64,000 bases of DNA from an uncultured Actinomycetes bacterium (lineage in GTDB: Bacteria > Actinomycetota > Humimicrobiia > Humimicrobiales > Humimicrobiaceae): NCBI GenBank assembly GCA_963847665.1, contig CAWKAO010000003.1:85453-149452 (forward strand), read 5' to 3'. The notes under the pieces are model-generated. The model was given only the letters and a program-made list of their open reading frames with translations, searched no databases and was not told where the DNA came from. How positions within the stretch are numbered: the stretch's first letter is position 1; each line of letters begins with the position of its first letter. The position numbers were made by a program, and so were the translations under genes. Shown piece by piece: positions 8,105-61,274 of the stretch.

Positions 8105-8213
8105 TTTTTAAGAGAGAAATTCTTTCTTTTCCCTATTTTTAAGAACAACTCATATTAGTTTAAAAAATAGTTTAATCAATAATCAACTATTTTACTAATT
8201 ATAATTCTTCTAT

Positions 8214-9527: not shown

Positions 9528-9557
9528 AGCAAATAAATCAATATTATTATTTATAAA

Positions 9558-11625: not shown

Positions 11626-11644
11626 TTTTAAAATTTTATTTACT

Positions 11645-13499: not shown

Positions 13500-13604
13500 G
13501 CAAATTATAGATAAAACCTAATATTTCTTTACTTTGTAAATAAAATGTTTTATTTTAGAAAAACTATTTTTACTAAAAACCCGATAATACAATAGAGCAG
13601 TAAT

Positions 13605-14393: not shown

Positions 14394-14409
14394 CCCTCTG
14401 GACTTACGT

Positions 14410-15678: not shown

Positions 15679-15723
15679 TTTCAGGATATTATAAAGATAT
15701 CAACTTATATTTATTTTAAAATG

Positions 15724-22250: not shown

Positions 22251-22562
22251 TTAAAATAGCATAAACGATCTTTATATTTAATTATAAATCTTATGGTTTT
22301 TAAAGTTTTCCTTAAAAATAACAAATTAAACATATTTTTAATCCTTGTCTATCTTGTTTTACCGTTTATTTTTTTTGAAGGCAGCTTCAGGTTAAACACT
22401 CTTATACAGGGTTTTGCAGATACCAATAACTCACAGATCCCCATTCTTTTACTGAAGATTAATACTATCAAAGCATTACAGTTTCCGTTCTGAAATCCTT
22501 ATGAATTAAACGGGTTTCCATTTTTTGCTAATATTCAGTCTGGTATTTTCTATCCAGTCACA

Positions 22563-45327: not shown

Positions 45328-46341
45328 TTAATCAACATTCATAATGCAGATATCAGATTTACCTTTATTTATTGATACGTAAGCTATTTTCTTACCATCC
45401 GGTGCCCATGATAGATTCCCATCATCTGATAAATTGTTTGATGAATTCACCTGATCTGATCCGTCAGAATTCATAATATAGATCTCGACATTGCTATCCC
45501 TTTCTGATATAAAAGCTATTTTCCTGCCATCTGGGGACCACGAAGCTGCCGCGTCAGAAGCCGGATTATCTGTCAATCTTGTCTGACCTGTACCATCAGC
45601 ATTCATACTGTATATTTCAACATTATTATTACTAAAAGAAGTAAAAACTATTTTTGTATTATCTGGAGACCAGTCAGGGTAAAGATCATCACCAGGATTA
45701 TCTGTCAATCTTGTCTGGCCTGAACCATCAGCATTCATACTGTATATTTCAGAGTTGCCATCACGTCTTGATTGAAAAAGGATTTTTTTACTATCTAAAG
45801 ACCAAGCAATAGAAGCAGAGTCAGAAGCCGGATTATCTGTCAATCTTGTCTGGCCTGAACCATCAGCATTCATACTGTATATTTCCCAATTGCTATTTCT
45901 GTCTGACATAAAAGCAATTTTCTTGCCATCAGGCGACCAGACAGGGTACGAATCATTTGCTGGATTATTTGTTAGATTATATTCCGTTGATCCGTCAGAA
46001 TTCATAATATAGATCTCAATATTGCCATCCCTTTCTGTTATAAAAGCTATTTTCTTGCCGTCTGGCGACCACGAAGCTGCCGCGTCAGAAGCCGGATTAT
46101 CTGTCAATCTTGTCTGGCCTGAACCATCAGCATTCATACTGTATATTTCCCAATTGCCATCTCTGTTTGACATAAAAGCAATTTTCTTGCCATCAGGCGA
46201 CCAGGCAGGTGAACGATTATCCAAAGAGTCATGAGTGAGAATTATCTTTCCTGTGAGAATCTCTTCATTTTGGCATGCAGAGTTTAGTAAAAAGAAAAAA
46301 ATAACAAATATTGATAGTAATAAAAAAAAGCTTCTCTTCAT
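45328..46341 (-). CDS. Lipoprotein made of seven TolB-like PD40 beta-propeller repeats
   Basis: Lipobox 'LLNSAC'. Repeats of the type 'SPDGKKIAF.S.RDGNWEIYSMNADGSGQTRLTDNPASD'. Confidence 0.7.
   Translation of the reverse strand: MKRSFFLLLSIFVIFFFLLNSACQNEEILTGKIILTHDSLDNRSPAWSPDGKKIAFMSNRDGNWEIYSMNADGSGQTRLTDNPASDAAASWSPDGKKIAFITERDGNIEIYIMNSDGSTEYNLTNNPANDSYPVWSPDGKKIAFMSDRNSNWEIYSMNADGSGQTRLTDNPASDSASIAWSLDSKKILFQSRRDGNSEIYSMNADGSGQTRLTDNPGDDLYPDWSPDNTKIVFTSFSNNNVEIYSMNADGTGQTRLTDNPASDAAASWSPDGRKIAFISERDSNVEIYIMNSDGSDQVNSSNNLSDDGNLSWAPDGKKIAYVSINKGKSDICIMNVD
45541..46150. repeat. Near-identical intragenic tandem DNA repeats (132-141-nt period) encoding the PD40 blades
   Basis: 'ggattatctgtcaatcttgtctggcctgaaccatcagcattcatactgtatatttc' recurs at 45563, 45704, 45830 and 46094 with 0-3 mismatches. 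An ~80-nt block at 45541-45620 is repeated at 46071-46150. Confidence 0.7.
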
Positions 46342-46548: not shown

Positions 46549-47286
46549 TTGGAAAATATATTATCAATAGTAATACCTGCCTATAATGAGCAGAGCAGCA
46601 TCGAGTGTACACTAGATAAAATAATTGAGTATTTTCAAGATACAAACACAACATTTGAATTAATAATAGTCGATGATGGAAGTAGCGATAATTCATTAGA
46701 AATACTAAAAAAATACAGAGCACTAAAATATAAAAATATACTTCCAAATAAGATTATTCTTTTAAATAACAAACGGAATATGGGAAAAGGTTTCTCTGTA
46801 CAAAGAGGAGTACTGAAGTCCAAAGGTAAATTTGTTTTGTTTACCGATGCTGACCTATCTACACCGATAGAAGAAGTTGGAAAAATGCTTCTTTACTTGC
46901 AAAATGGTTATAATATCACTTTAGGCTCTAGAAGTTTGAAAGAATCCAAAGTCATTATCAGACAAAATATTTTAAGACAATCGATGGGAAAAATTTTTAA
47001 CAAGCTTGTGCGTTTGTTTTTGAATATAAAATATTCTGACACCCAATGTGGTTTTAAATGTTTTGATAGAAAAGCAGTTGACATGATCTTTCCAATCCTG
47101 AAAATAATGGATTTCAGTTTTGATGTTGAAATACTTTATTTGGCTCAAAAGCTAGGATTAAATGTAATAGAAATTCCTGTCAGATGGAAAAATGTAGAGG
47201 ATTCTAAAGTAAATATAATAAAAGACTCAATCAAGATGCTCTACAACTTGACCAGAATACGAAGGATACACAAAAAAATTCTATAA
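46549..47286 (+). CDS. Polyprenyl-phosphate sugar synthase, GT2 (DPM1/Ppm1-like, no C-terminal TM)
   Basis: 'LSIVIPAYNEQSSI...LIIVDDGSSDNS...FTDADLSTPIEEV' and 'DTQCGFKCF'. 245 aa. Confidence 0.8.
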   Translation: MENILSIVIPAYNEQSSIECTLDKIIEYFQDTNTTFELIIVDDGSSDNSLEILKKYRALKYKNILPNKIILLNNKRNMGKGFSVQRGVLKSKGKFVLFTDADLSTPIEEVGKMLLYLQNGYNITLGSRSLKESKVIIRQNILRQSMGKIFNKLVRLFLNIKYSDTQCGFKCFDRKAVDMIFPILKIMDFSFDVEILYLAQKLGLNVIEIPVRWKNVEDSKVNIIKDSIKMLYNLTRIRRIHKKIL

Positions 47287-47380: not shown

Positions 47381-48823
47381 ATGACTGAAAACGGAAAAAA
47401 GAGATTATTATATCTAATTATCTTCCTAATTTTTATAGTTTCAGTTTTCTCAACAAACTACATCATGATCAGTAATGATGTACCAGTCAAGGATGCAGGC
47501 GAATATCTATTAATGGCCTACAATTTCGAGAAATACGGAACTTTTTCACTTGAGACCAGAGATATCCCTGACCCTGAACCGACTGCGTACAGGGAACCTG
47601 TGTTTCCTGCATATATGGCCTTTTGTATTTTAATAAATCCGGCAATAAATAATATGGACAGGGAAACACTGTTTAAAGAAGGAAATTTTTATATAAAAGT
47701 AATGCAAATACCTGTTTTGCTAATATTGTCTTTCCTGGTATTTTATATAGTCTTTCTAATCACCAAAAATCCTGTAACAAGCTTTATTACATTGTTTCTG
47801 GTCGGGACAAGTATGACTCTTTCCGATACTGTTTCAAGGTTGTTGTCTGAAAATATTTCGGCATTGCTGATTATTCTAACAGCAATATTTTTTTATAAAT
47901 TAATAACACAGAAAAAAATAATTTTTTTTATCTTATCAAGTATTTCTTTAGGCATTTTAATCCTGGATAAAGCTGTATTCTTATACTTCATTTTTATTGC
48001 CTTCATTTTCTTACTCATTTATTATCTAAAAACAAAATTCTGCACGAAAAAGATATTTATAACGGGATTATTGATTTTTATTCTGACCAGCTCTATTATA
48101 CCCGGTGCATGGATGGCAAGAAATTATTATCACTTTGGCCATTTTGCATTAACCGGAAGAGGAGGAATAGTGCTGTTAGTGCGTGCAGAAAAAAATCTGA
48201 TGACACCAAAAGAATACCTGGCATCATTTTTTTATTGGTCTCCTAGCGAAAAAGTCAGGACGTTGATTTTATCAAAAATTTTATCGGAAAAAGATTATGA
48301 GAGGTTAGATAGGTCTAATAAAAATAGTTTCTATTACCAGGTCACGAGAGTGGAATTAGGTGTTAAGAATGTTCCTGAAACCAATACAATATCACCTGAA
48401 TATACTACCTTTGAAAAAGATTCAGAACTCAGAAAAAAAGCTATTGACCTGATCTTAAAACATCCTATTCGACATATTCTCGCTATACCTCAATTCGTAT
48501 GGAGAGGGCTTTTCCCTGAATCGGGTTTTTTAATAGACCTGCCTGGCAGTACAGAGTTCAAGATTGCAAATAATAACATACTTAATCTATTCATATCCTT
48601 CAGTTTCTTTTACATGTTTATTTTTAGCATTAGAAAAAAAATGTGGAACTTATTTGCATTCTTACTACCCGGAATTTATTTGTTTTCAATAAATTCTTTA
48701 ATGACTCATAATATCGCAAGATATAGCGCACCCATCATCCCGGTTTTAATAATAAGTACTGTGCTTTTCTTTTATTTCAGATTGAAACAACCACACAGCC
48801 ATTCAATTAAAAAAACGGGGTAG
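47381..48823 (+). CDS. GT-C-fold glycosyltransferase of the ArnT/PMT type (GT39/GT83-like)
   Basis: 480 aa polytopic protein. First-loop motif 'NDVPVKDAGEYLLMAYN' and a general ArnT-like TM arrangement. Confidence 0.6.
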   Translation: MTENGKKRLLYLIIFLIFIVSVFSTNYIMISNDVPVKDAGEYLLMAYNFEKYGTFSLETRDIPDPEPTAYREPVFPAYMAFCILINPAINNMDRETLFKEGNFYIKVMQIPVLLILSFLVFYIVFLITKNPVTSFITLFLVGTSMTLSDTVSRLLSENISALLIILTAIFFYKLITQKKIIFFILSSISLGILILDKAVFLYFIFIAFIFLLIYYLKTKFCTKKIFITGLLIFILTSSIIPGAWMARNYYHFGHFALTGRGGIVLLVRAEKNLMTPKEYLASFFYWSPSEKVRTLILSKILSEKDYERLDRSNKNSFYYQVTRVELGVKNVPETNTISPEYTTFEKDSELRKKAIDLILKHPIRHILAIPQFVWRGLFPESGFLIDLPGSTEFKIANNNILNLFISFSFFYMFIFSIRKKMWNLFAFLLPGIYLFSINSLMTHNIARYSAPIIPVLIISTVLFFYFRLKQPHSHSIKKTG

Positions 48824-48852: not shown

Positions 48853-50859
48853 TTATTCAGAATATTTAATCTCATATATTTCAAGATTTTTTATCACTGC
48901 GGTACCATCATCTAAGGTATAGATCCTGAAATATATATTTCCGCTTTCTGGGATCTCTCCTGAATTTAATATTTCTATTATCTGGGTAAATTTTTCACCT
49001 GGATCCTCAAGGGCAACATTGAACTCCTGTTCAGGTCTGTCATACCCATCGGCAAAGAAATCAAAATTTATATAAGCGTCGCTAAAGGTTTCATTTTTGA
49101 TCTCAAAACTTATCAGATAATCCGTATTGTCTTTAATATCTATAGGTGTTTTTAAAACCTTAAGAATATTTTTTCCACCATTTAAAAATATACTTTTCTT
49201 ATCAGGCAATATCTCCATATTTTCATATTCCGCAGAATCTAGAGTTTTATAATCAAGCAATGGGTTAATTGAAGACTTTTTAAAAGAGTAAAGGACAAAA
49301 TCTTCAAAACCGACTATTGAGTCATCAAATTTTTTATTGATCCTCTTAAATAAATATTTTTCCGGGACTCTATCATCCTGCACCGCACTTCCATTGACTA
49401 CGACAAGGATTTCCTGGCTCTTATTCATAAACGAAAGCGCTTTTTTAAATATTACCTCTTCCCTGAGATCATTTGACCTTATACTGTAAGGGCAAATCCT
49501 CCCGAAGGTATCAGACTGTGGAAAGTATATATCCTTGTTCAGATAAGCGACAATTGTATGGACGTCAATATCTTTATAACCTACTATCACTGTATTTTTA
49601 AGGTCAAAATTTCCATCGATATATTCTGCGATCTGTTTTCCTGAAGAATAAGGATACCTATAATCATAATAAGCTGCTGTGGCTGAGCTGCTTATAGTTA
49701 GTGATAGGACTAATATTAAAAATATTTTACCCAGTAAAATATTTTTATTTCGCTTAAATCTAATAAGGTAAGCACTTCTGTCATCCTGTAGGTCAGATAG
49801 CCAGATGCACGCGGCCATAAATATAAAAATCAGTCCACCGTGCCTTGTGCCGCCGTATATAAAATAAATCGCACCTATAAGGGTTGAAGCACCGATCAAA
49901 TATAGCCATGCTATTCTTTTTTTCATTAACAGGACTGGAAATAAAAATATTACCAGCGAAAGTATATAAAGATAAACATGGTTAAATCTTAAAAGAAATG
50001 AATAGATAAGATTAGTATTCCTGAACTCAAAACCAAAACGTGGTATCTGCAAAAAGACAGATATTATATATTTGGATGCCAGAAAAGGAAATCTGCTTAG
50101 TTGTTCGGCTGTCACATTAAATATAGTCGTCACTGATGGTCCCCAAACAGTCCCCTGTATCGCCTGTGAGCCAAGTTCCCAGAAAAGCAGCACAAAACCT
50201 GCAATGATTATCAATGAAAAGATAGATAATTTTGTCCTGGTTGTTTGTTTAAGAATATCTCTTCTGTCAGAAATAAAATCGATTATCATTAACAGCAAAA
50301 AAAATAAAGATATTAGAAAAGTATATAGATGGGCCTGGCCCATAAAAAATAATGCAATCGATATGGGGATCAGATTCTTATACTTATCCCTGTAAAGAAC
50401 GCAAAAAATAATGATCGGCAGGACCCCCAGCGCATAATTTCTTGAAACTATTGAATATTCATAAAATGGAAAGTATCCAAAAACAAATAAAACATTGATT
50501 ATTTTATTAAAGGGGGAATATTTCACAAAGAGAAAACAGGTTGAGGAGGATAATATCAAATGGACTATTTTCATACTTTCAGGATTTCCAGTCGCGAAGT
50601 GGGAGATCAAATACAGAATGGCGTTCCATAAAAAAGGATGCCCATAATTATCCCGCATATTGAAAAGAAATTCCCGGATATTACTGCTTCCTATTGCAAT
50701 GTTCCAGGCTTTTGCTTCATCGCCCCAGAGTTCATGGCGGAGGATGAGTATTACACTTAAAATCAAAAATAAAGCAGTTATGATATAAGGAAAAGCTTTC
50801 TCCAAGGTTTGGTATTTTTTACTGTTAAGATTTGACATTTTTCTTTGAGTCCGAAACAT
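48853..50859 (-). CDS. GT-C-like polytopic membrane protein with a conserved ~120-aa C-terminal soluble domain (domain type A)
   Basis: N-terminal ~400 aa with about 11 TM segments and a 'WGDEAKAW' first-loop acidic motif. The C-terminal 'DYLISFEIKNETFSDAYINFDFFADGYDRPEQEFNV...ILNSGEIPESGNIYFRIYT...IKNLEIYEI' is homologous to the C-terminus of 55365-57488. Confidence 0.5.
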   Translation of the reverse strand: MFRTQRKMSNLNSKKYQTLEKAFPYIITALFLILSVILILRHELWGDEAKAWNIAIGSSNIREFLFNMRDNYGHPFLWNAILYLISHFATGNPESMKIVHLILSSSTCFLFVKYSPFNKIINVLFVFGYFPFYEYSIVSRNYALGVLPIIIFCVLYRDKYKNLIPISIALFFMGQAHLYTFLISLFFLLLMIIDFISDRRDILKQTTRTKLSIFSLIIIAGFVLLFWELGSQAIQGTVWGPSVTTIFNVTAEQLSRFPFLASKYIISVFLQIPRFGFEFRNTNLIYSFLLRFNHVYLYILSLVIFLFPVLLMKKRIAWLYLIGASTLIGAIYFIYGGTRHGGLIFIFMAACIWLSDLQDDRSAYLIRFKRNKNILLGKIFLILVLSLTISSSATAAYYDYRYPYSSGKQIAEYIDGNFDLKNTVIVGYKDIDVHTIVAYLNKDIYFPQSDTFGRICPYSIRSNDLREEVIFKKALSFMNKSQEILVVVNGSAVQDDRVPEKYLFKRINKKFDDSIVGFEDFVLYSFKKSSINPLLDYKTLDSAEYENMEILPDKKSIFLNGGKNILKVLKTPIDIKDNTDYLISFEIKNETFSDAYINFDFFADGYDRPEQEFNVALEDPGEKFTQIIEILNSGEIPESGNIYFRIYTLDDGTAVIKNLEIYEIKYSE

Positions 50860-51093
50860 ATTAGGTAATGATATTTATTATAATTTATTATAGAAACTTG
50901 AAAAGACTTTGATCAACAAGAATATACCATATAATGACAGAATCAAATTATAATGTTAATTATTTTATTTTAATCAATAATAAATTAAATGTTTAAAAAT
51001 ATCTCTTAAAAATTTATAATAAGAAAAAATATTTTTTTCGGACCTGACATAGTAATCAGAACTTTTTCATGGACTGATATCCTTGAGGGAAAA

Positions 51094-52689
51094 ATGACGG
51101 AAAATTTTAACCATCAATTAAATGACTCCAACAGCTTTGGTAATGATATCAAGTCCATCTTCATAAAAGACTATAAATTTATAATATTTGCTTTTATTTT
51201 CGCTATCACTACACACATATTACTATGGATAGCATACCCGCTTCACTGGGGCCCGGATGGTCCAAATTACATTTATTACTACCTGGATATTTTTAATAAA
51301 AATCCATTATTTCCGATGATTTTGACATACAGGACTCCTGTTGCGCCTCTTTTCTATGGGTTTTTATTGGAGCTCGGTGGAAGCATTGCTGTTTCAATGG
51401 TAATTGAGGTCCTATCGCTTCTTCTTATTCCTGCAGTTTATTTACTGTCACTATCATGGGGAAAATATTCTGCCAGGGTAGCGACTATACTTTTTATCGC
51501 ATTCCTGCCATATCAAATTCAGTTTCACCAGATCAGTTCAGATGCTCTCTTCTCATGGTTTGTACTGATTTTCTTTCTTTCGCTTAAATATGCTATCGCT
51601 CATAAAAATATCTATTCATGGTTGATATCGGGTATTATTGCATCTTTGACAATCCTTACCAGGCCTTCAGGCCTTGTAATAGTTATTATCCCTGTTGTCT
51701 TATTTTTCCTTAATCTAAAATTTAAAAAAATATTAAAACTTGCCGGAGTCTTCCTATTATGTATAATTGTTTTTCTTGGCTCATTTATTATTTTTAAGGG
51801 AGTAAGGTTAAACGACTATGGTCTGTCCAGAGGCTCAAATTATACCGCTTTTATGAGGATCTACACTCTTCAGGAATCTTTATGGAGCCCGGATAATGGG
51901 CCAGAATCAAAAAAACTTGTTTCAATAGTCGAGGAAAAACTTCTAACTACAGATCTTTATAAAAAATATGATATCGATATTAAAAAGGTTCTGGCACACC
52001 AACCAAACAGAAGAATACTTGGAGATATCATAGTCACAGTTGACCGGGTAGAAGGCTGGAACACTGAATATGAGCTTTTAAAAAAAGTCGCCTATGAGTC
52101 AATTAAGGCCAGCTCTTTTTCATTTCTTGAACATTATTTAAGGGATATATTATTGCTTATCACCATAAACCAAGATGTCCCGGAAGCCCCTGGAATAAAT
52201 GATACAAAAATATACCTGAACGATATAAATTCTTATACTGAAGAGGATCTTCCCAAACCAACAGAAGGAGAGTTAATTCCTTTTTCAAATACCTGGTGGA
52301 TGCTTTCCCGCCCAGATGGAAGTCTTCCCAGTACCTTGCAACTAAGTAATTTCAATGAAAGATATGAGGCTATTGTATCAGACATTGACAATCCAGGAGG
52401 TTCAGAAAAGCTTGTAAAGCTAGTAAACAGGTTATGGGATACGATTAATATACCTATCTCATATTTTTGGGTGTTTGGAATTTTTGCAATAATATTTTCT
52501 AAAAAGTTAAACAGGATTTTATTGATCACGATAATCATTTTTTCTCTGATAATAATTGTCGGCACATTGTATGCGGCACATGTATATACACGATACAGGC
52601 TACCACTTGACCCTTTATTGATGATAGCAGGTGTTGCAGGATTTTTTTCGATAATCGAAAGAATCCATCAAAAAAATCAAAATAATTAA
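51094..52689 (+). CDS. GT-C-fold glycosyltransferase (ArnT/PMT-like)
   Basis: 531 aa, multi-TM, first loop 'YPLHWGPDGPNYIYY'. ArnT-like architecture. Confidence 0.5.
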   Translation: MTENFNHQLNDSNSFGNDIKSIFIKDYKFIIFAFIFAITTHILLWIAYPLHWGPDGPNYIYYYLDIFNKNPLFPMILTYRTPVAPLFYGFLLELGGSIAVSMVIEVLSLLLIPAVYLLSLSWGKYSARVATILFIAFLPYQIQFHQISSDALFSWFVLIFFLSLKYAIAHKNIYSWLISGIIASLTILTRPSGLVIVIIPVVLFFLNLKFKKILKLAGVFLLCIIVFLGSFIIFKGVRLNDYGLSRGSNYTAFMRIYTLQESLWSPDNGPESKKLVSIVEEKLLTTDLYKKYDIDIKKVLAHQPNRRILGDIIVTVDRVEGWNTEYELLKKVAYESIKASSFSFLEHYLRDILLLITINQDVPEAPGINDTKIYLNDINSYTEEDLPKPTEGELIPFSNTWWMLSRPDGSLPSTLQLSNFNERYEAIVSDIDNPGGSEKLVKLVNRLWDTINIPISYFWVFGIFAIIFSKKLNRILLITIIIFSLIIIVGTLYAAHVYTRYRLPLDPLLMIAGVAGFFSIIERIHQKNQNN

Positions 52690-52703
52690 AAAGGCAGACC
52701 GCT

Positions 52704-53660
52704 ATGAAACTTTTTATACAGGTACCATGCTTTAATGAAGAAGCATTTATCAGAGATACGCTTGATGCTTTCCCTGAAAAAATTAATGGCATAGACACAA
52801 TAGAAATCCTTATAATCGATGATGGCAGTAGCGATAATACTATAGAAGTCGCAAAAAAATGGGGTATCGAGCATATTTTAAAACTTCCGGGACATTTGGG
52901 CCTTGCAAAGGCATATATTGCAGGTATAGAGTACTGCCTTAAAAATGGTGCTGACATTATAGTCAATACAGATGCTGATAACCAATATTATTCTGAGGAT
53001 ATAGAAACCCTTGTAAAGCCCATACTGGGGAGGGAGGCAGAATTAGTAATCGGGACAAGACCGATCGATGAAATAAAGACTTTTTCATTTACGAAAAAAC
53101 TGCTTCAGAAATTTGGAAGCTGGGTTGTTAGGGTTGTCTCAAATTCTGAAGTTAAAGATGTCACCAGCGGATTCAGGGCACTTACCAGAGATGCAGCAAG
53201 TAAAATAAACGTCTTTTCCAATTATACCTACACAGTCGAAACAATAATCCAGGCTGGCCTGAGCGGCATTACAACAATTTCCGTTCCGATCAGGGTCAAC
53301 AAACAGACCAGGCCTTCAAGACTGATCCGGAATATTCCTGAATATATTTTCAGGAATCTGTTCACTATACTTAGAATTTTTTTACTCTATAAACCCTTTC
53401 GGTTTTTTGCACTGATAAGCTTAATATTCGGCATTCCCGGTATTACACTCGGCATAAGATATTTATACATTCTCGTAAATGGTATCCCCGGGCAACATAT
53501 TCAATCCCTTATACTTTCAGCTATACTTATAATCGCTGGAGTCTTATTTTTTATCCTTGGGTTGCTGGGAGACCTTATATCAGTTAACAAGAAACTTTTG
53601 ATCGATATAAAAGCATCTTTAAGATTATCAAAATTCGATGGAGATAAAAACAATAATTGA
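52704..53660 (+). CDS. Polyprenyl-phosphate sugar synthase, GT2 (GtrB-like) with C-terminal TM pair
   Basis: 'KLFIQVPCFNEEAFI...LIIDDGSSDNT...VNTDADNQYYSEDI' followed by two C-terminal TM helices. Immediately upstream of GT-C paralog 2. Confidence 0.8.
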   Translation: MKLFIQVPCFNEEAFIRDTLDAFPEKINGIDTIEILIIDDGSSDNTIEVAKKWGIEHILKLPGHLGLAKAYIAGIEYCLKNGADIIVNTDADNQYYSEDIETLVKPILGREAELVIGTRPIDEIKTFSFTKKLLQKFGSWVVRVVSNSEVKDVTSGFRALTRDAASKINVFSNYTYTVETIIQAGLSGITTISVPIRVNKQTRPSRLIRNIPEYIFRNLFTILRIFLLYKPFRFFALISLIFGIPGITLGIRYLYILVNGIPGQHIQSLILSAILIIAGVLFFILGLLGDLISVNKKLLIDIKASLRLSKFDGDKNNN

Positions 53661-53718
53661 TTTTTAACATATGATTGTTATATATAAAAATAAATATTTT
53701 TATTAAAAAACTTTTTAT

Positions 53719-55341
53719 ATGCTAGAAAGAATAAAAAAAATAGCTGAAAATAATTACAGGGTCATTGTAATTATTTTTTTTATAGCTTTTCTTATAATCG
53801 GCCTGATTTCTGTCGGCGATTATGGATTTTCCACAGATGAAGGACTGCAGTATGATCTTGGGAACTCTGCTGTAAAATTGTTATTAAATAATGATAGGGT
53901 CATTTATGAATTAAATAACAGGTATCATGGCACGGCTTTTACACTCATCATGACCATAATACAGAGAAATTTTGATATCAGTGACACAAGGACTATTTTT
54001 TTATTAAGACATTATTTTACTTTTTTACTTTTCTTTACCTCAGTTATACTTTTCTATTTTCTCTGCAGGAACATTTTTAAATCATGGAAAATCGGATTAC
54101 TTGGCAGCATCTTCCTGGTCCTTTCTCCAAGAATATTTGTAGACGCTTTCTATAATCCAAAAGATCTTCCTTTTTTATCTATGTTTGTTATTTCTATCTT
54201 TACACTCAATAGGTTCCTTGAAAAAGGTGGGCTAGGGCTGGCATTTTTTCATGGGATAGCTTCAGGTTTTGCCTGTAGCATGAGAATTGTCGGTGTATTG
54301 GTTCCCTTTTTCACAATATTATTTCTTATTTTTGAACTGGTCCTTAAAAAAAAGGACAGCCAAAATACTAAAGACATGCAGATCAAAAAAAGGATACAGC
54401 ATCTGCTGATATACTTACTTATTACGATAATTGTCTTTCTCGTACTTATGCCTTCTATCGTTACAGATCCTATAAAACATTTCTTTGCCGCCATCAAGCA
54501 TATGTCAGATTTTCCCCATAACACTACATTTTTATATATGGGACAGGTTTTAACCACCGGAAATGGCCTGCCCTGGCATTATTTGCCTGTAAATATATTA
54601 ATAATGACTCCTATTCCCTATACCATTTTATTTTTTATAGGGATCGTATTTTTATTCGTCCAGGTAAAAAGAAAAAACGGGATTTATTATAATGCGAACA
54701 AATATATTATTATTGCTGTCTTATGGTTCTTAATGCCTGTACTTTCTGCAATTTTTTTAAGCTCCAATATGTACAACGGATGGCGCCAGATGTATTTTGT
54801 TTATCCGGCATTTTTAATAATAGGGTTAAATGGTGTTAAAAAAATATATGGGATTTTTGAGAAAAAATTAAAGCCGGGATACTATAATATTATTTCAATA
54901 ATGATTACTGGTCTATTATTAATTAATATAGTATTTTTTACACAGATAATAGTAAGATTGCACCCATATGAATATGTCTATCACAATATGCTTGCAGGAA
55001 AAGACCTGAAAGAAGTCAAAGAAAACTTCATACTTGATTACTGGGCTTTATCCTATAAAGACGGTTTTGAATATATTTTAAGAACTGATAATAGAGATAA
55101 AATAACTTTTACAGTAAGATGTGCTCCAAAGGAATCGCTAATATCTCTTTTCCCGGAGCAGGATAGAAATAGGTTGAAATACGTTACTAACATCCAGGAT
55201 GCAGATTATTTTTTGAATAATTATCAGTGCGGTGATCTGATCCTTGAATCACAGGGAGTCGAGCAGTCAGACTTGAAGAATAAGGTATACTCTACATATT
55301 TAAATGGTGTAGAATTACTGGTAGTCTATAAGTTAAAATAA
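53719..55341 (+). CDS. GT-C-fold membrane glycosyltransferase (GtrC-type), paralog 2 of 4
   Basis: 540 aa. 'DYGFSTDEGLQYDLGN', 'FYNPKDLPFLSMF' and 'LPWHYLPVNILIMTP' are colinear with 43662-45311. Confidence 0.65.
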   Translation: MLERIKKIAENNYRVIVIIFFIAFLIIGLISVGDYGFSTDEGLQYDLGNSAVKLLLNNDRVIYELNNRYHGTAFTLIMTIIQRNFDISDTRTIFLLRHYFTFLLFFTSVILFYFLCRNIFKSWKIGLLGSIFLVLSPRIFVDAFYNPKDLPFLSMFVISIFTLNRFLEKGGLGLAFFHGIASGFACSMRIVGVLVPFFTILFLIFELVLKKKDSQNTKDMQIKKRIQHLLIYLLITIIVFLVLMPSIVTDPIKHFFAAIKHMSDFPHNTTFLYMGQVLTTGNGLPWHYLPVNILIMTPIPYTILFFIGIVFLFVQVKRKNGIYYNANKYIIIAVLWFLMPVLSAIFLSSNMYNGWRQMYFVYPAFLIIGLNGVKKIYGIFEKKLKPGYYNIISIMITGLLLINIVFFTQIIVRLHPYEYVYHNMLAGKDLKEVKENFILDYWALSYKDGFEYILRTDNRDKITFTVRCAPKESLISLFPEQDRNRLKYVTNIQDADYFLNNYQCGDLILESQGVEQSDLKNKVYSTYLNGVELLVVYKLK

Positions 55342-55364
55342 AACAAGAGGGATAAACGTTTAAT

Positions 55365-57488
55365 ATGAAAAATAAGAAATTGAAAGTATTGCTCATAATC
55401 CTGACATCAATAATAATTTTTGCAGGTTTTTTACTTCTTGTCCTCCCTTTTTTAAAATTATCTATCAAAGGTACTGAGTTTAGTGGCATTATGTTGATTT
55501 TATCAGGCAGCATAATAATGCTGGGGCTTGAAAGATTGGAAAACTTAACAGGTAGATTTTTTAAAAAGCTTTTTTCTGCAATTAAAGATGAGGGAAGACC
55601 CCATCTTATTTTTTTGCTGATCATATTTATATCCGGAATCATTTTCAGGATTATTTTTATTACAAAACAGATCAATTACAGTGAAGCATTTATTTACCTT
55701 GATTATCTGAGAGAGAGGACTTTTAATGACCTTTTCTTCTACTCATCCGCAGATAATTTTATTCTTAATAATCTCTTTATGAAGCCATTGTCTTTAATAT
55801 CCAGTGATCTATGGGTCTTAAGGTTGCCTTCATTAATAGCAGGTATGATTATAATCCCCGCATCTTATGTCACAACAAGGATCTTATATAATAAGCATGC
55901 AGCACTGATCGCTTCAGCAATCATATCCTCCTCTTCATACTTCATTTATTATTCTACCGATATGAGAGGCGTCTCTCTTCTTCTACTTGTTTTTCTATTT
56001 ACCGTAATGACTGCTACGTTTTTAAGAAAAAACGATGAGATGATCGCATGGGTCTTTATATCATTGCTATCAGCTTTAGGATTCTATCTAACCGCTTTTT
56101 ATTTTTTACCTTTTATGACAGTTATGATTTGGCTTATTCTTTCTGCAATTTTTAAGGACACTGCATATAGTCTGTGGAATGCAATAAAACGTGTTCTTTT
56201 AGTTGCAGCTGTGTCTTTTATGTTTACTTTTCTTTTTTATATTCCAGTTATCATAACTTCAGGAATAAGAGATACGGTAAACTTTAATTTTTCAAAAGCT
56301 GAAAATTTAAAATTAGCGCTTAAATCCTTAATAGACCTGATCAGGCCAGAATGGATTGGCTTAAATGCAATTATTAACTTGATTTTTATAATTCTGTTAT
56401 TTATTGCAGTTATCTTTTCAGTAACTATAAGCAGAAAAAATAAAAAGCATAAGATTTCCTTATTTTATGCTGTCGCAATAGTAATTACTATATTTATGCT
56501 TTCTTTAGTAAAATTTTCTTCTGCAGTTTCAATGGCTTTTATTCCACTATCCTTGATCATTATTGCATCATATGGAATAAGCTACATCCTGGGAACTGAC
56601 AGAATATTAAATGGAACAGCAATAAACAGAAAGTTATCCCGGTCAGCAGCTATTTTCGCAACAGTGTCTTTGATTGCAATATTTTCTGTGGGGCTTATTT
56701 TTAATTCTATTTCACTTATAAATGTGACTGACACTTTAAAGGATTCTGACAGGATTGTATCAGATTACGGCAGTAAATTTACAACTGGAAATAAAGTGAT
56801 CCTTCAAAAACCAGCTGATTATCTGATGATGTACTCACTTAAAACCCAGGGAATTAACTATACAGGATATGAAGATGTCTTATACCCTGATAATAATATT
56901 ATTATTTTAGTAAGCAAATCAGCCGGGCAAAATGTTGATGAAATATTAAATAACTTCTACTCGACACACGACCTTCTATCTCTAGGTTTTACAGATCCTG
57001 AAATCTTAAAAGATTATCCTACCGCAACAATTTACGAATCCAGAAATAGGGTTGTGGCAGATAATATTATTTTTGATCTGACCGATCCTTCAAATGAAAA
57101 TAATATTGAAATGGAAAAATTCATATTCTCCTCTGAACCTGAGATTGACGAGTTTCTTTTAGATGATTTTAATCCGGAATCTCTAAAATATGTAAAAATA
57201 TCTGTCAGCCTTCAAAAAGATACAGAATACCTAATAAGATTTAAGATCAAAGCAGACCAACTGACCAATAAGATATTTATTGATTTTTTCGGAGACAATT
57301 ATGACAATCCTGATCAGGAATTTAATATTGACCCTGAAACAATCAAACAGGGCTCCTTTGTAGAGGTCAGAAAGGTCATTAATTCAGGTGAATTTAAAGA
57401 TGGGATAGATACATTTTTCAGGATTTTCACATATGCTAACGGGCACCTACAGATACAGGATCTCAAGATCTATAAGGTTGATGATTAA
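55365..57488 (+). CDS. GT-C-like polytopic membrane protein with the same conserved C-terminal domain (type A) as 48853-50859
   Basis: 707 aa. ~13 TM segments, then a soluble region ending 'EYLIRFKIKADQLTNKIFIDFFGDNYDNPDQEFNI...VINSGEFKDGIDTFFRIFT...IQDLKIYKV'. Confidence 0.5.
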   Translation: MKNKKLKVLLIILTSIIIFAGFLLLVLPFLKLSIKGTEFSGIMLILSGSIIMLGLERLENLTGRFFKKLFSAIKDEGRPHLIFLLIIFISGIIFRIIFITKQINYSEAFIYLDYLRERTFNDLFFYSSADNFILNNLFMKPLSLISSDLWVLRLPSLIAGMIIIPASYVTTRILYNKHAALIASAIISSSSYFIYYSTDMRGVSLLLLVFLFTVMTATFLRKNDEMIAWVFISLLSALGFYLTAFYFLPFMTVMIWLILSAIFKDTAYSLWNAIKRVLLVAAVSFMFTFLFYIPVIITSGIRDTVNFNFSKAENLKLALKSLIDLIRPEWIGLNAIINLIFIILLFIAVIFSVTISRKNKKHKISLFYAVAIVITIFMLSLVKFSSAVSMAFIPLSLIIIASYGISYILGTDRILNGTAINRKLSRSAAIFATVSLIAIFSVGLIFNSISLINVTDTLKDSDRIVSDYGSKFTTGNKVILQKPADYLMMYSLKTQGINYTGYEDVLYPDNNIIILVSKSAGQNVDEILNNFYSTHDLLSLGFTDPEILKDYPTATIYESRNRVVADNIIFDLTDPSNENNIEMEKFIFSSEPEIDEFLLDDFNPESLKYVKISVSLQKDTEYLIRFKIKADQLTNKIFIDFFGDNYDNPDQEFNIDPETIKQGSFVEVRKVINSGEFKDGIDTFFRIFTYANGHLQIQDLKIYKVDD

Positions 57489-57567
57489 TTTAACAGGATA
57501 TTTTTACATATCATTTAGATGGAAAAAAATATATAATATCGACAGTTAAAAACAGCAAAAAGGTTTT

Positions 57568-59235
57568 ATGGAATTAAAAAGCGGATATATAGATTTTATT
57601 CAAAGATATGTTCCTAAAGTACTGACTCATTTAGATAGAGACCCTGATTCAATAAATTTCGGGTGTTGCGACAGAAATTACTGGCATCTCAGATCAAGTG
57701 ACTTTGCTTCTGCTATTCTTCAGCAAACCAGTCTCACGCTTTCACTGTTATACAGCACTGATTTTGAAGGAAACAGGTATTACAAAAATCGTAATATATA
57801 TGATTGGGCGATCGGTTCGATCGATTATTGGAAAAGAATTCAGCACCGTGATGGTTCTTTCAATGAGTATTTCCCAAATGAACATGGGTTTCCGCCCACT
57901 GCTTTTTCCTTATTTGCTATTGCCTATTCTTATATGCTTTTAAAACTTAATGACAATTCAGTAATAGATTCAATGCTTAAATCTGTAAAATGGCTTTCCC
58001 AAAGGGAAGAGTTTAAAGCATACAATCATGAAATAGCCTCAATAAGTGCCTTATACTGTACTTATCTGATAACAGACCAGAAGTGGATTCTAGAAGTTGT
58101 GAATAAAAAATTAGATGTTTTTCTAAGAGGCCAGTCTGGGGAAGGGTGGTTTCCAGAGCAAGGGGGCGCCGACCTCGGTTACCTGACAGTCACTTTTGAT
58201 ATGTTTTCTGAGTATTACTGGCTCAGCAGGGACAGTAAAGTTATTGAACCATTAAATAAAGTTACAGATTTTATTAAATATTTCTGTCACCCTGATAAAA
58301 CATATGGAGGTGAATACGGTTCAAGGAATACCATATATTTTTTACCCAGCAGTCTTGAAGTCTTATCCAGTATCGGAAATTTCAATGCTAAACAGATAAA
58401 AGATTTTTTATTTAAGAATACGGGTGGTTATGATTATTTCCAGAACTCTATCGACGACAGATACCTGCTTCATTATGTGATGCACTCTTTTTTAAGGGCT
58501 CTTCAAAAAGAAAATGAATTAAAAAAGGGAAACGGGACCAGTGATAAGAATAATTACCAGGAAAATCTACAATACAATTTCCATAAAGAGTTGCCCTGCT
58601 TTAAAAACCATGAAAAATATTTTTCAGATAGCGGCTTGCTAACCTTGAAAAATGACAATTATTTTGCGGTGGTCAGTGCAAAGAAAGGTGGGGTAATCAA
58701 AGTATTTGATTCTGGTAACGAGATATTTGCCGATTTTGGATTCAGGGCGATCCATAAAAATAATACGATTTCTGCAACTAACTGGCTTGATGATTCATAT
58801 AAGATAAAAATTGAAAAAAATACTATAACAGTCAAAGGTTATTTCAATAAAATAAAACTCCAGCATTCGTCCACTCTAAGGCATTTTCTACTACGGATTT
58901 TTTCCCCTTTTTTAAATAGTATTTTAAGGGAGTTTTTATATAAGAAACTAATATTCATAGACAAACATTCAAATATCAAATTCGAAAGAACTATAAACCT
59001 AAGACATAGTAATATTCAAATAACAGATATTATCACTGATAATAATGAAATGCTACCCCTTCATTCAGCACCAAATATTTCATTAAGATTTGTTGCTTCA
59101 GATAAATTTTTCAGCAAGACTGACCTTCTGAGTGAAAAAAGGATCGAACTGGATGGAGTAAAAGCCATAAAAATTATTCAGGATTTTAACGTTTTCTCGA
59201 AAAATACAAGTACCCTGGTTGAGAAGTTATCATGA
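57568..59235 (+). CDS. Hypothetical soluble protein (555 aa), possibly a polysaccharide-modifying enzyme
   Basis: No TM segment or signal peptide. W/Y/H-rich N-terminal half ('NYWHLRSSDFASAIL', 'DYWKRIQHRDGSFNEYFPNEHGF') weakly resembles alpha/alpha-toroid lyase/epimerase folds. No firm family assignment. Confidence 0.35.
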   Translation: MELKSGYIDFIQRYVPKVLTHLDRDPDSINFGCCDRNYWHLRSSDFASAILQQTSLTLSLLYSTDFEGNRYYKNRNIYDWAIGSIDYWKRIQHRDGSFNEYFPNEHGFPPTAFSLFAIAYSYMLLKLNDNSVIDSMLKSVKWLSQREEFKAYNHEIASISALYCTYLITDQKWILEVVNKKLDVFLRGQSGEGWFPEQGGADLGYLTVTFDMFSEYYWLSRDSKVIEPLNKVTDFIKYFCHPDKTYGGEYGSRNTIYFLPSSLEVLSSIGNFNAKQIKDFLFKNTGGYDYFQNSIDDRYLLHYVMHSFLRALQKENELKKGNGTSDKNNYQENLQYNFHKELPCFKNHEKYFSDSGLLTLKNDNYFAVVSAKKGGVIKVFDSGNEIFADFGFRAIHKNNTISATNWLDDSYKIKIEKNTITVKGYFNKIKLQHSSTLRHFLLRIFSPFLNSILREFLYKKLIFIDKHSNIKFERTINLRHSNIQITDIITDNNEMLPLHSAPNISLRFVASDKFFSKTDLLSEKRIELDGVKAIKIIQDFNVFSKNTSTLVEKLS

Positions 59236-60182
59236 CCGATTATTCCATAATAATACCATGTTATAATGAGCAGGATAGCATAGAAGAGCTATATGATAGG
59301 CTATTAACTATCTTTAAAAGTTTAGGTGCCTCTTCTGAGATAATTTTTATCGATGACGGCTCAATAGATGATACATGGGAGAAAATAATTGGTTTAAGCA
59401 AAAAGGACCCTGGAGTCAAGGGCGTCTCCTTCAGGCGGAATTTCGGAAAATCCATGGCATTTTCATGTGGCTTTGACCTTGCAATTGGTGAAGTGATATT
59501 TACTATTGATGGTGATCTGCAGGACACCCCGGAAGAGATCCCAAAATTCATTGAAAAATTGAATGAGGGGTATGACCTTGTTTCAGGCTGGAAAAGAAAA
59601 AGAAAAGATACTTTTGCCAAGGTAGCTGCTTCAAGGATATTTAATTTTTTTACATCTCGGTTGACTGGTGTTAGGATACATGACTTTAATTGCGGTTTTA
59701 AAGCCTATAGAAAAAAGGTCATAAAAAATCTTGATATTTATGGTGATCTTTTCCGTTTTATTCCTGCAATTGTGAAATGGAACGGGTTTAAGGTAGGGGA
59801 AATAGTAGTAGAGCATAATGTAAGGAAATATAGCAAATCAAAATATGGTCCGAGGCGATTATTGAGGGGGTTTTTTGACTTATTTACAATTCTATTTCTA
59901 TCAAGATACTTAAGAAAACCACTGCATTTTTTTGGAGTTGTCGGGGGGGCAATATTATTGATAGGCTTTGGGATAAACCTGTATCTCGCGATTATATGGT
60001 TTCAGGGGCAGCTGATAGGAGGCAGGCCTTTACTTATTTTAGGGACCTTGCTAATGATCATAGGAATTCAATTTACAATGACAGGTTTGCTGGCAGAAAT
60101 GATAGCACATTTCCAGACTAAAATGGACAGGTCAATATATCCTATCGCAGAAAAAACTGACAATATTGACAGGTTTAAATAA
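59232..60182 (+). CDS. Polyprenyl-phosphate sugar synthase, GT2 (GtrB/ArnC-like) with C-terminal TM pair
   Basis: 'YSIIIPCYNEQDSI...IIFIDDGSIDDT...FTIDGDLQDTPEEI' plus two C-terminal TM helices. 4-nt overlap with the upstream gene. Confidence 0.8.
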   Translation: MTDYSIIIPCYNEQDSIEELYDRLLTIFKSLGASSEIIFIDDGSIDDTWEKIIGLSKKDPGVKGVSFRRNFGKSMAFSCGFDLAIGEVIFTIDGDLQDTPEEIPKFIEKLNEGYDLVSGWKRKRKDTFAKVAASRIFNFFTSRLTGVRIHDFNCGFKAYRKKVIKNLDIYGDLFRFIPAIVKWNGFKVGEIVVEHNVRKYSKSKYGPRRLLRGFFDLFTILFLSRYLRKPLHFFGVVGGAILLIGFGINLYLAIIWFQGQLIGGRPLLILGTLLMIIGIQFTMTGLLAEMIAHFQTKMDRSIYPIAEKTDNIDRFK

Positions 60183-60233
60183 AAATTTATATTCAGATTT
60201 AAATAATATTAGATAAAATCCTCAACTTAAAAT

Positions 60234-61274
60234 ATGAGTAGCATAGCTTCCAAAATTTCGGGGAAAAAAACCCTGATAATTAGATTAACTGCCAGCCTGA
60301 TTATAACTGGCAGTTTTATTTATTTTCTCGTTAAATACCTTGATATAAATGATTTCAAACAGCTTTTTAGCAACATTAATATTTATTTTTTCCTGATGGC
60401 CCTTCTACTTCATTCTTTCGATTATGCTATCAGGAGTTTCAGGACAATACTTATACTGGACCTTAAAATGAAAAGCTTCAGTAATATGTTCTTTATGTAT
60501 TCAAGATATTACCTGCTTAACAAGATCCTGCCTTTCAGGCTTGGGGAGCTTTCCTTTATTTATTTTCTAAAGAATGAATACAATACTTCATATGGCAAAG
60601 CAGTGGGGATACTTATTTATTTTCGTATCATAGACCTTCTGACTGTGCCTATTTTCTTTATAGCGGCATACTTGTTTAACTACTCAACCTTCCAGAGTGC
60701 AAACAATTCTGCAATCCTCGTAATATCTTTTATTTCTTTAATACTGATTTTCTTAATCTTTATCTTTTTTAAGAGAATTTTAGATAAGTTGTATTATTTC
60801 TTTTTTTGGCTTTCAAAAAAGTTCAATTTTTTCCAAAAAAAATTATATTTAAACCTACTTAAAAAACTTGAAAATTTTACCATTGAGACCAAAGCATTTA
60901 TTAACTGGAAGACAAATTTAAACACTGCATTATTACTTCTCTTTGACAGGTTTTTGGTTTACCTTATTATGTTCCTGCTATTTATTGGTTTTGGTATAAA
61001 GATCAATTTTGGGATTTTTATCATAGCCTCAAGCCTATCTATCCTCACCAATGTTCTTCCGATCAATGGAGTCGGCAATTTCGGGACATTTGAGGCCGGT
61101 TGGACATTTGGATTTATACTGGCCGGGTATAACAGGAACCTATCACTTGTTTCAGGCTTTGGCATTAATATAATTTATTTTATTTTTACTGTTGTCGTAC
61201 TTATAATAGGTTTCTTTATTTCAGACTACAGAGCCAAATTTTTCAGGACCGTCAGATCAAAAATAAAAAGATAA
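60234..61274 (+). CDS. Flippase-like membrane protein (lysyl-PG synthase TM-region / UPF0104 family)
   Basis: 346 aa, ~8 TM segments. 'ILPFRLGELSFIYFLK' matches the conserved P-x-R-x-G-E loop of this family. Directly downstream of a GtrB-like gene. Confidence 0.6.
   Translation: MSSIASKISGKKTLIIRLTASLIITGSFIYFLVKYLDINDFKQLFSNINIYFFLMALLLHSFDYAIRSFRTILILDLKMKSFSNMFFMYSRYYLLNKILPFRLGELSFIYFLKNEYNTSYGKAVGILIYFRIIDLLTVPIFFIAAYLFNYSTFQSANNSAILVISFISLILIFLIFIFFKRILDKLYYFFFWLSKKFNFFQKKLYLNLLKKLENFTIETKAFINWKTNLNTALLLLFDRFLVYLIMFLLFIGFGIKINFGIFIIASSLSILTNVLPINGVGNFGTFEAGWTFGFILAGYNRNLSLVSGFGINIIYFIFTVVVLIIGFFISDYRAKFFRTVRSKIKR

Follow-up and report, generated by a model that had tools for sequence, protein, structure and literature searches.

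Two otherwise dissimilar membrane proteins, A and B, of an uncultured Actinomycetes bacterium share a C-terminal module. This module is confidently predicted as a β-sandwich carbohydrate-binding module (CBM) that is CBM4/CBM16/CBM22/CBM70-like and has a fold of the galactose-binding-domain-like class. Judged from its sequence relatives, the module is a rare, so far unnamed family of its own. Both proteins are encoded in the window, which is the whole 64,000-nucleotide stretch of DNA analysed (Table 1).

The shared module and its sequence family

Both open reading frames (ORFs) were confirmed, and all eight peptides quoted from them in the original prediction were found in the translations. As had been claimed, the C-termini align; a single significant BLASTP segment joins residues 566–664 of A to residues 607–705 of B, with 37% identity, 65% positives, and two gaps (E=2e-17, composition-based statistics). 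All remaining BLASTP segments between A and B have E≥0.06. With either C-terminus as query, tblastn found only two copies of the module in the window, at 49164–48868 in A and at 57183–57479 in B. When every six-frame ORF of the window was searched with an iterated HMM of the family (option --max), the modules of A and B were matched with E-values of 6e-36 and 2e-32, and no third copy was revealed (next-best match, E=0.49). A full-length relationship between the A and B families, scored 99.7% by hhalign, was rejected, as the score is driven by the module. After trimming of the module no significant profile–profile similarity is left (probability 3.4%, E=0.013), in agreement with the earlier statement that the membrane parts are not obviously paralogous. 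The proposed size of about 120 residues also holds, the structural domain spanning approximately residues 540–666 of A and 580–706 of B with an easily aligned core of 100 residues. Hence, the similarity of the two C-termini is confirmed as real at the sequence level, and only some 100–125 C-terminal residues are in common. Homogenisation of the two modules within the genome was considered and rejected, because their mutual identity of 37% is no higher than their identity to modules of other genomes or host types. The A module, for instance, is 41–43% identical to the modules of the homologues P0003 and P0005.

Exhaustive HMMER searching yielded 110 representatives of the module family at E≤1e-3, of which 45 reach E≤1e-10. 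The family emerged solely from this search, since word-indexed homology searches with the module returned one or two matches only. A scan of a genome collection with a tighter alignment found three loci, a number restricted by the two peptide patterns used in the scan. No tblastn match was found in the annotated plasmid and phage collections, and the window has no Rfam match. The family signature reads Y...D-F-x-G-x-x-Y-D-x-P-E-Q-E...N-S-G-x-x-P...F-R-I-F-T. In the numbering of A, Tyr581, Asp600, Tyr606, Asp607, Gln611, and Arg645 are near-invariant, and Glu612, Asn632, Ser633, Gly634, Pro637, and Thr648 are highly conserved. Members occur in poorly studied lineages, namely in low-GC metagenome-assembled genomes (MAGs) labelled Actinomycetota and in an Anaerotruncus MAG. 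High-GC members such as P0012 are present as well.

Table 1. Positions of the proteins, module copies, and neighbouring genes in the window
Feature	Position	Strand	Remarks
Protein A	48853–50859	minus	668 aa
Module copy 1	48856–49242	minus	A residues ~540–668; alignable core 566–664 (nt 48868–49164)
Protein B	55365–57488	plus	707 aa; PMT_2-type GT-C membrane glycosyltransferase; module at C-terminus
Module copy 2	57102–57485	plus	B residues ~580–707; alignable core 607–705 (nt 57183–57479)
YfhO-type GT-C	22293–24722	plus	Pfam YfhO E=2e-18; without module
PMT_2-type GT-C paralogue	43662–45311	plus	540-aa family (Pfam); without module
Further 540-aa-family PMT_2-type copy	53719–55341	plus	
Further 540-aa-family PMT_2-type copy	61311–62927	minus	
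More distant PMT_2-like proteins	47381–48823 and 51094–52689		
GT2, ArnC/GtrB type	59232–60182	plus	Candidate maker of lipid-linked donor; Pfam Glycos_transf_2 E=8.6e-32
Second GT2, DPMS/ArnC-like	52704–53660	plus	Membrane-anchored; Pfam; PDB matches DPMS 1.3e-13, ArnC 2.9e-8
Third GT2	46549–47286	plus	245 aa; Pfam Glycos_transf_2 E=6e-29
Flippase-like membrane protein	60234–61274	plus	LPG_synthase_TM, Pfam E=6.4e-29; candidate lipid-linked-sugar flippase

Predicted fold, host proteins, and membrane side

Structure prediction from the family alignment gave a confident all-β fold, as the original prediction of a β-rich module had it. The predicted structure is a two-sheet β-jelly-roll within the class of about 120–160 residues, and CBMs form most of its best structural matches. 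Matches in a viral fold library were limited to CBM-like domains of the generic phage tail and receptor-binding sort. At the sequence level, sub-threshold matches to CBM_4_9 (PF02018) occur in 17 of 70 family members (best 3.2e-4) and to CBM_4_9_1 (PF22637) in 7 of 70, and the family profile matches the CBM70 chain 4d0q with an E-value of 0.004 over half of the domain. None of the 70 members scanned against Pfam reaches the curated threshold of a CBM family model, the two copies in the window have no Pfam match even at E≤1, and no Pfam or NCBIfam model names the module. The earlier remark that it is not a recognised named domain is therefore half right: it has no family name, but structure and profile searches place it in the common, known fold class of CBM4/9/16/22/70-like jelly-rolls. 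Since these searches reach that class, we regard the module not as an unrecognisable domain but as a family that is of a known kind and merely has no name yet. The idea of a carbohydrate-binding-type domain is borne out insofar as the predicted fold is that of β-sandwich CBMs and the module is carried by membrane enzymes that decorate glycans. It differs from the known families in several respects. Identity to CBM70 of Streptococcus pneumoniae hyaluronate lyase (PDB 4d0q; PMC4175358) is only 13%, with a match below any family threshold; CBM70, CBM4, CBM16, and CBM22 are found on secreted glycoside hydrolases or lyases, whereas the present module is on membrane transferases; and the motif set DFxGxxYDxPEQE, NSG, and FRIFT is peculiar to the present family.

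The position of the module varies among its hosts, being internal, C-terminal, N-proximal, or in tandem. It is internal in 44 YfhO-type proteins, the commonest hosts, and C-terminal in 13 B-type, four A-type, and four T5-type proteins as well as in one 540-aa PMT_2-type protein (P0039, a relative from elsewhere). Pfam detected YfhO in 15 and PMT_2 in 8 of the 54 host proteins scanned (best PMT_2 E=1.1e-10; the PMT_2 count is pooled over host types). P0004, P0008, and P0036 are B homologues with the architecture of B. In P0074 the module follows an AlgX SGNH domain, and P0012, a protein having no hydrophobic segments, contains three modules in tandem. Among members of the A family the module is present, replaced, or absent. 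On the YfhO, PMT_2, and AlgX-domain hosts, it is a discrete appended non-catalytic module, as befits a CBM. By this distribution, the module is a mobile accessory domain, a discrete unit appended to several unrelated polytopic enzymes. The YfhO-type gene of the window lacks it exactly at the insertion point that is occupied in more than 40 homologues; in the alignment, the module region of P0022 (606 to 754) corresponds to just 16 codons of this gene. TGA recoding was rejected as the source of an in-frame stop in the same gene, as TGA terminates 13 of 39 genes here. Pfam matches to ChW, Calx-beta, NHL, and Amidase_3 were also seen, possibly originating from weak, partial module matches (P0048, P0059, P0097, P0108, and P0111); not being attributable to confirmed module hosts, they were left out of the evidence.

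In the YfhO-type hosts, the module falls in the region published as a large loop, which is predicted to be extracellular (PMC5836110). A crude hydropathy and charge count of A and B gave an odd number of hydrophobic segments before the module, with a positive-inside bias. From the loop position and this count, the module of A and B most likely lies outside the cytoplasmic membrane, as originally proposed.

Membrane proteins and gene cluster

Both proteins had been described as GT-C-like. For B this is supported by a Pfam match to PMT_2 (PF13231; E=1.9e-6; its 28.6 bits exceed the curated cut-off, 26.1), with no sequence match in the PDB among solved GT-C structures. For A, which has no profile similarity to the GT-C families in the window, the description is conjectural. 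A is composed of a membrane part of about 400 residues with approximately nine hydrophobic segments (crude scan), a soluble linker domain of about 140 residues, and the C-terminal module. None of the 50 homologues found has a Pfam domain, and no match to a GT-C Pfam family was found in 30 members at E≤1; A itself has no Pfam or NCBIfam match and no relative in the PDB. Compared by hhalign, its membrane part scored probabilities of at most 5.7% with the B-type, 540-aa PMT_2-type, and YfhO-type proteins and those starting at 47381 and 51094, and at most 0.6% with Wzy, Wzx, and flippase-like proteins. A single-sequence AlphaFold model of full-length A was unusable (pLDDT 43). The A family has an RHExWxDE motif directly after the first hydrophobic segment, in which His42, Trp45, and Asp47 are invariant and Glu43 and Glu48 are at least 90% conserved. 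Further downstream, His100, Glu134-Tyr135, and Arg140-Asn141-Tyr142 are conserved. The segment count and the motif appear compatible with, but not specific to, GT-C. The membrane part of A belongs to an orphan family with a putative transferase role. A-type proteins were found in surface-glycan loci only. As their C-terminal β-domain is swapped, it is reasonable to consider the A type as a possible new family of transferases.

The gene content of the setting is that of a surface-glycan locus and includes many GT-C paralogues. The window also encodes Wzy_C, Bac_transf, GT4, Wzx, and DegT genes. The GT2 at 59232–60182 has full-length PDB matches to ArnC (3e-49), GtrB (sll0501; 7e-37), and DPMS (2e-22). 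This gene and the GT2 gene at 52704–53660 lie on the strand of B with short intergenic gaps, so that candidate polyprenyl-phosphate sugar synthases are encoded together with the GT-C proteins. The flippase-like protein scores 42.1 bits with the TIGR00374 'flippase-like domain' model, slightly below the cut-off of 43.2, and no GtrA-family flippase was found among the cluster ORFs scanned. The window shows neither an ABC-transporter nor a chain-terminator context. A similar cluster elsewhere (locus L001) contains a homologue of B with the same architecture and, beside the cluster, a 51% identical homologue of the flippase-like protein. In locus L004, an A-type protein and the adjoining YfhO-type protein both carry the module.

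Possible role of the module

The attachment of a CBM to a GT-C enzyme is a principle already established for EmbC, AftD, and ORF12. ORF12 of Citrobacter youngae, the GT-C enzyme on which family GT136 was founded, belongs to a three-component system for pentofuranose glycosylation, and its purified C-terminal CBM binds the unmodified O-polysaccharide backbone (PMC11127046). As in ORF12, a β-rich module follows the final transmembrane helix of a GT-C enzyme (here B, and putatively A), and the candidate partners are a GT2-type lipid-sugar synthase and a flippase-like protein. The present proteins differ from ORF12 in the module, which is described as immunoglobulin-like in ORF12 and is a CBM4/16/70-like jelly-roll here (a comparison by description, not by sequence); in the hosts, which are of the PMT_2, YfhO, or orphan A type instead of GT136; and in the organisms, since ORF12 is from a Gram-negative O-antigen producer and the present proteins are from MAGs labelled Actinomycetota as well as from an Anaerotruncus MAG. 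The CBM of mycobacterial EmbC binds acceptor analogues and is required for full activity, and a tryptophan mutation in CBM-like subdomain II of its C-terminal domain reduces polymer extension (PMC3044687). CBMs have also been described on the GT-C transferase AftD (bioRxiv 10.1101/2019.12.22.885152), and both AftD and Staphylococcus aureus YfhO are said to bear carbohydrate-binding domains (PMC8035078). EmbC and AftD are GT-C transferases with a lectin-like β-sandwich module that faces the extracytoplasmic side and recognises the acceptor glycan; the same arrangement and function are proposed for the present proteins. A C-terminally membrane-anchored GT2, a flippase, and a YfhO/PMT_2-type GT-C are likewise encoded together in the YfhO/CsbB/GtcA and GtrA/B/C-type systems, which decorate wall polymers outside the cell (PMC5836110, PMC8035078). 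Unlike those systems, the present locus has an LPG_synthase_TM 'flippase-like' protein with no GtrA among the scanned cluster genes, and unusually many GT-C paralogues.

We infer that the CBM-like module is probably displayed extracytoplasmically to bind the acceptor glycan for enzymes that decorate the surface glycan, and most likely holds these enzymes on the polymer they decorate. The ArnC/GtrB/DPMS-like GT2s would charge polyprenyl phosphate with sugars, the flippase-like protein would translocate the loaded lipid so that the sugar faces outwards, and GT-C enzymes such as B would pass the sugar to the polymer made by neighbouring Wzx/Wzy-type genes. Binding of this acceptor by the module could raise its local concentration or position it at the transferase. 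Its contribution to activity may be small, given that ORF12 did not need its CBM for catalysis in the assay conditions used (PMC11127046).

That catalysis is possible without the ORF12 CBM also fits glycan binding for localisation or quality control, such as anchoring to peptidoglycan or a wall polymer, or reading of a terminal modification as by the Wzt CBM in O-antigen export. CBMs that read chain-terminal marks are known in glycan export (cited in PMC11127046), and the fold and context evidence is equal to that for acceptor binding. We nevertheless consider such a role improbable, because it is the transferases themselves that carry the module, and the simplest common requirement of these hosts, which are of at least five families, is the acceptor polymer, and because of the ABC-transporter- and terminator-free context. 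Similarly unlikely is a protein–protein interaction or assembly domain that, with no glycan binding, forms a complex of pathway enzymes or docks on an S-layer or envelope protein. One β-sandwich common to different enzymes of one pathway would suit such a domain. Against it, the best structural matches are mostly CBMs and the sequence-level links are to CBM families only; the P0012 triplication and the P0074 AlgX fusion are typical of glycan-binding modules; and modules from a single genome resemble each other no more than do modules from different genomes, giving no hint of co-evolving homotypic partners. Chance or compositional similarity, conceivable in Lys/Asn/Ile-rich proteins from a genome of about 33% GC, is refuted by the BLASTP E-value obtained despite composition-based statistics, by the family size with its high-GC members, and by the confident fold.

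With acceptor binding as the preferred reading, a further-reaching view is tentative and rather doubtful as a whole: that the module is a new CAZy-level CBM family, a glycan-recognising 'address tag' that has been shuffled between extracytoplasmic envelope enzymes of five or more unrelated families and directs all of them to one cell-wall polymer, and that the A type is an unrecognised membrane glycosyltransferase family with RHExWxDE as its catalytic loop. In any case, the domain family is well defined by its signature motif, has a confident structural model, and deserves a name. With it, YfhO-type, PMT_2-type, and orphan membrane proteins of uncultured Gram-positive-like lineages, whose module region is currently unannotated, can be annotated better. 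The module may also serve as a marker of proteins that act on one class of surface polymer, and if they do so, that polymer could be sought with the module as a probe, for instance in the form of a fluorescent fusion.

The shared C-terminal module of proteins A and B

Protein A and protein B are encoded where the original prediction placed them (see table), and every peptide quoted there was found in the translations. Their C-termini share a domain, referred to as the module. BLASTP with composition-based statistics gave a sole significant segment, in which residues 566-664 of protein A align with residues 607-705 of protein B (37% identity, 65% positives, 2 gaps; E=2e-17); chance similarity of the two C-termini is excluded. 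Outside the module, no BLASTP segment was better than E=0.06. The window holds exactly two module copies, as found by tblastn with either C-terminus as query, and an iterated family HMM, applied unfiltered to every six-frame ORF of the window, returned the same two only. The membrane parts had been described as otherwise different, and hhalign of the A family (homologues of protein A) against the B family without the module gave a probability of 3.4%. At the profile level, the membrane parts of the two families are unrelated. Hence, the BLASTP, tblastn, HMM, and hhalign results confirm the original observation in full.

Features of the window and of locus L005, one of six loci compared with it
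Feature	Position	Strand	Size or remark
YfhO-type gene	22293-24722	+	ATG start at 22293; in-frame TGA at 22491-22493 ('FPF*NPY')
DUF4214 protein	31217-33229	+	670 aa
Split GT-C copy, 540-aa PMT_2-type	35728-37328	+	three reading frames
UDP-glucose dehydrogenase	38614-39898	+	two frames, split near 39.25-39.3 kb
PD40 (TolB-like) propeller protein	42087-43622	+	
PD40 (TolB-like) propeller protein	45328-46341	-	
Protein A	48853-50859	-	668 aa
Protein B	55365-57488	+	707 aa
ORF between protein B and ArnC-like GT2	57568-59235	+	555 aa; overlaps GT2 start by 4 nt
L005 four-gene run (GCA_019058415.1, JAHPZC010000005.1)	8001-16410		same strand; 662/654/805/654 aa
L005 example of the second C-terminal domain	8001-9989		

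The module family is real but rare. Word-indexed searches of 5.8 billion clusters found 1-2 relatives only, and exhaustive HMMER on 1.84 billion representatives found 110 proteins at E<=1e-3, 45 of them at E<=1e-10. In 185,579 species genomes, a pattern-based scan located three module loci, which belong to an 'Actinobacteria bacterium' MAG (L001), Candidatus Calidifonticultor of the class Ca. Humimicrobiia, Actinomycetota (L002), and an Anaerotruncus MAG (L003). The window's proteins are singleton clusters.

In P0012, a protein with three module copies, the repeat period is ~152 aa; the module unit therefore includes ~40 residues N-terminal to the 100-aa core. An alignment of 70 sequences of this extended unit was the input for an AlphaFold model of residues 524-668 of protein A (pLDDT 92.9, pTM 0.87), which is all-beta with ten strands, as had been anticipated. 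Numbered as in protein A, the conserved residues of the family are Y581, D600, G603 (which is Ala in protein A itself), Y606-D607, Q611-E612, N632-S633-G634, P637, R645, and T648. No Pfam or NCBIfam model matched the window's two copies. Across the family, a weak yet recurrent sequence signal was seen: sub-threshold Pfam matches among the 70 members are to CBM_4_9 (17) and CBM_4_9_1 (7), and 4d0q is the sole PDB match of the family profile under E=0.01 (E=0.004). Judged from sequence, 17 independent sub-threshold matches to one family among 24,736 cannot be a chance outcome. Hence, the module is an unnamed sequence family inside the beta-jelly-roll CBM fold class, which is very common. The domain had been called unrecognised; this holds for its sequence family but does not place it outside known categories. 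The module represents a rare and new sequence family with an ordinary CBM fold, and the arrangement of a CBM on a GT-C enzyme is already documented.

Host proteins and the orphan family of protein A

We grouped the module-bearing proteins, or hosts, by their non-module parts. YfhO-type hosts carry 50 modules, of which 44 are internal, located after the main helix bundle and before the last helix. PMT_2 proteins like protein B (B-type) carry 13 and A-type proteins four, all C-terminal, and 'T5' type proteins of ~440 aa carry four. The remaining hosts are P0039, a PMT_2-type protein of 540 aa; a group whose modules lie close to the N-terminus, one member being a PMT_2 protein (P0083); P0074, which has an AlgX SGNH domain; and the tandem protein P0012. 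In P0074 (1058 aa), ~12 hydrophobic segments are combined with the AlgX SGNH-like domain (E=1.8e-25) and, at the C-terminus, the module. P0012 has 436 aa and comes from a high-GC source; each of its three modules opens with a strand, 'GGFE/NGSFD...W', of the kind typical for CBM4/9-like domains. The window's YfhO-type gene lacks a module precisely at the insertion place of its homologues: residues 606-754 of the homologue P0022 correspond to just 16 codons, and in an L002 protein the module fills the gap between two segments aligning to the window protein. Judged by these architectures, the module is a mobile accessory unit. In a rough neighbour-joining tree of the 100-aa domain without support values, host types are interleaved within the clade including the window copies, which suggests, but in such a tree cannot prove, that the module has been exchanged between hosts.

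Both proteins had been called GT-C-like. This is borne out for protein B, which matches Pfam PMT_2 at 28.6 bits (cut-off 26.1), but is unproven for protein A. None of 30 A-family members has a Pfam, NCBIfam, or PDB relative, and the family shows no profile similarity to the window's GT-C, Wzy, Wzx, or flippase-like proteins; none of 50 homologues has a Pfam domain. A single-sequence AlphaFold model of protein A, at pLDDT 43, was too poor to inform on its fold. Points consistent with a GT-C assignment are its polytopic nature, a large C-terminal soluble region, its exclusive occurrence in glycan loci, and an RHExWxDE motif directly past the first hydrophobic segment, at the place of the acidic motif in GT-C enzymes, with H42, W45, and D47 invariant and E43 and E48 conserved. 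The C-terminal slot of the family has three states. It holds the module (P0113, P0003, and P0122-P0128), holds another beta-rich domain marked by the motif 'DP.FE...LRIDP..DC', for which hhalign shows no relation to the module (probability 0.3%), or is empty in proteins of about 515-540 aa. The second domain, which has no Pfam name, occupies the C-terminal ~150 aa of P0130-P0155 with the consensus 'W..L..CEF...DP.FE...F.IYFKR...LRIDP...DC.I..I..Y'. Locus L004 has an A-type gene adjoining a YfhO-type gene, with a module on both. The four successive Pfam-free genes in L005 look like a tandem expansion of the A family, kinship being established for the first gene alone.

The surface-glycan region and its disrupted genes

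The window as a whole constitutes a surface-glycan region, and A-family homologues elsewhere always lie in similar surface-glycan/GT loci. It encodes two Wzy_C proteins, a Bac_transf initiating transferase, GT4s, a Wzx-type flippase, a DegT aminotransferase, an epimerase, and a UDP-glucose dehydrogenase. From 42 kb on, a dense cluster contains protein B, GT-C paralogues at 43662, 47381, 51094, 53719, and 61311, three GT2s, one flippase-like protein, and the two PD40 proteins with propeller folds. The GT2 at 59232 has full-length matches to ArnC (3e-49), GtrB (7e-37), and DPMS, and that at 52704 matches DPMS (1e-13) and ArnC. Genes 51094 to 61274 lie on a single strand with short gaps. The cluster has the same anatomy as multi-component transmembrane glycosylation systems (PMC8035078, PMC5836110), and L001 has a closely similar one with a module-bearing B-type protein, a PMT_2 paralogue, a GT2, and a flippase-like protein (51% identity).

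Several further genes were observed. The ORF following protein B forms a singleton cluster, lacks Pfam, NCBIfam, and PDB matches, and has no homologue in the six loci compared with the window. The minus-strand PD40 protein starts with a hydrophobic leader that ends in 'LLNSAC' and resembles a lipoprotein signal, and it has seven repeats with a common near-identical 'MNADGSGQTRLTDNPASD' motif. The sole Pfam match of the 670-aa protein is a C-terminal DUF4214 (E=1.7e-13), the remainder being unannotated.

Three genes within 17 kb are disrupted. The TGA in the YfhO-type gene stands at a position where homologues have Trp (P0007 'FPFWNRY', P0011 'LPLWNEY'). Recoding is ruled out, as TGA is a normal stop in the window, ending 13 of 39 genes, and Trp is encoded by TGG 171 times; hence, it reflects either a sequencing error or a nonsense change from TGG to TGA. 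The split GT-C copy aligns by tblastn with residues 7-119 (frame 2), 105-336 (frame 3), and 339-529 (frame 1) of an intact L001 protein; it represents a pseudogene or a misassembly. The UDP-glucose dehydrogenase is split by comparison with its intact 450-aa homologue in L006 (54-64% identity).

Proposed role of the module

The fold, the CBM family link, the modular behaviour, and direct precedent argue for glycan binding, and the original proposal of glycan binding or acceptor recognition thus appears essentially right. EmbC binds arabinan acceptor analogues through a CBM-like subdomain, mutation of which lowers lipoarabinomannan extension (PMC3044687). ORF12, the GT-C enzyme in a three-component system, has a C-terminal CBM that binds unmodified O-polysaccharide (PMC11127046), and AftD and S. 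aureus YfhO have been noted with carbohydrate-binding domains (PMC8035078). A role in protein-protein assembly is unlikely: the module has sequence links to CBMs, occurs in tandem and AlgX-fused architectures, and shows no extra mutual similarity among copies from one genome. Glycan binding for localisation or quality control, a variant inseparable here from acceptor presentation, is likewise improbable. The structures closest to the module, CBM4 and CBM70, use a groove on the concave sheet to bind chains (PMC4175358), and by analogy a chain-binding mode would be most likely for the module. In support of a location outside the membrane, a crude hydropathy scan counted nine hydrophobic segments in protein A and 13 in protein B, with K+R biased toward the N-terminal side (20 versus 4 and 26 versus 12, respectively). 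In the best-supported reading, the module would be exposed outside the membrane and would bind the polymer that its host enzymes decorate.
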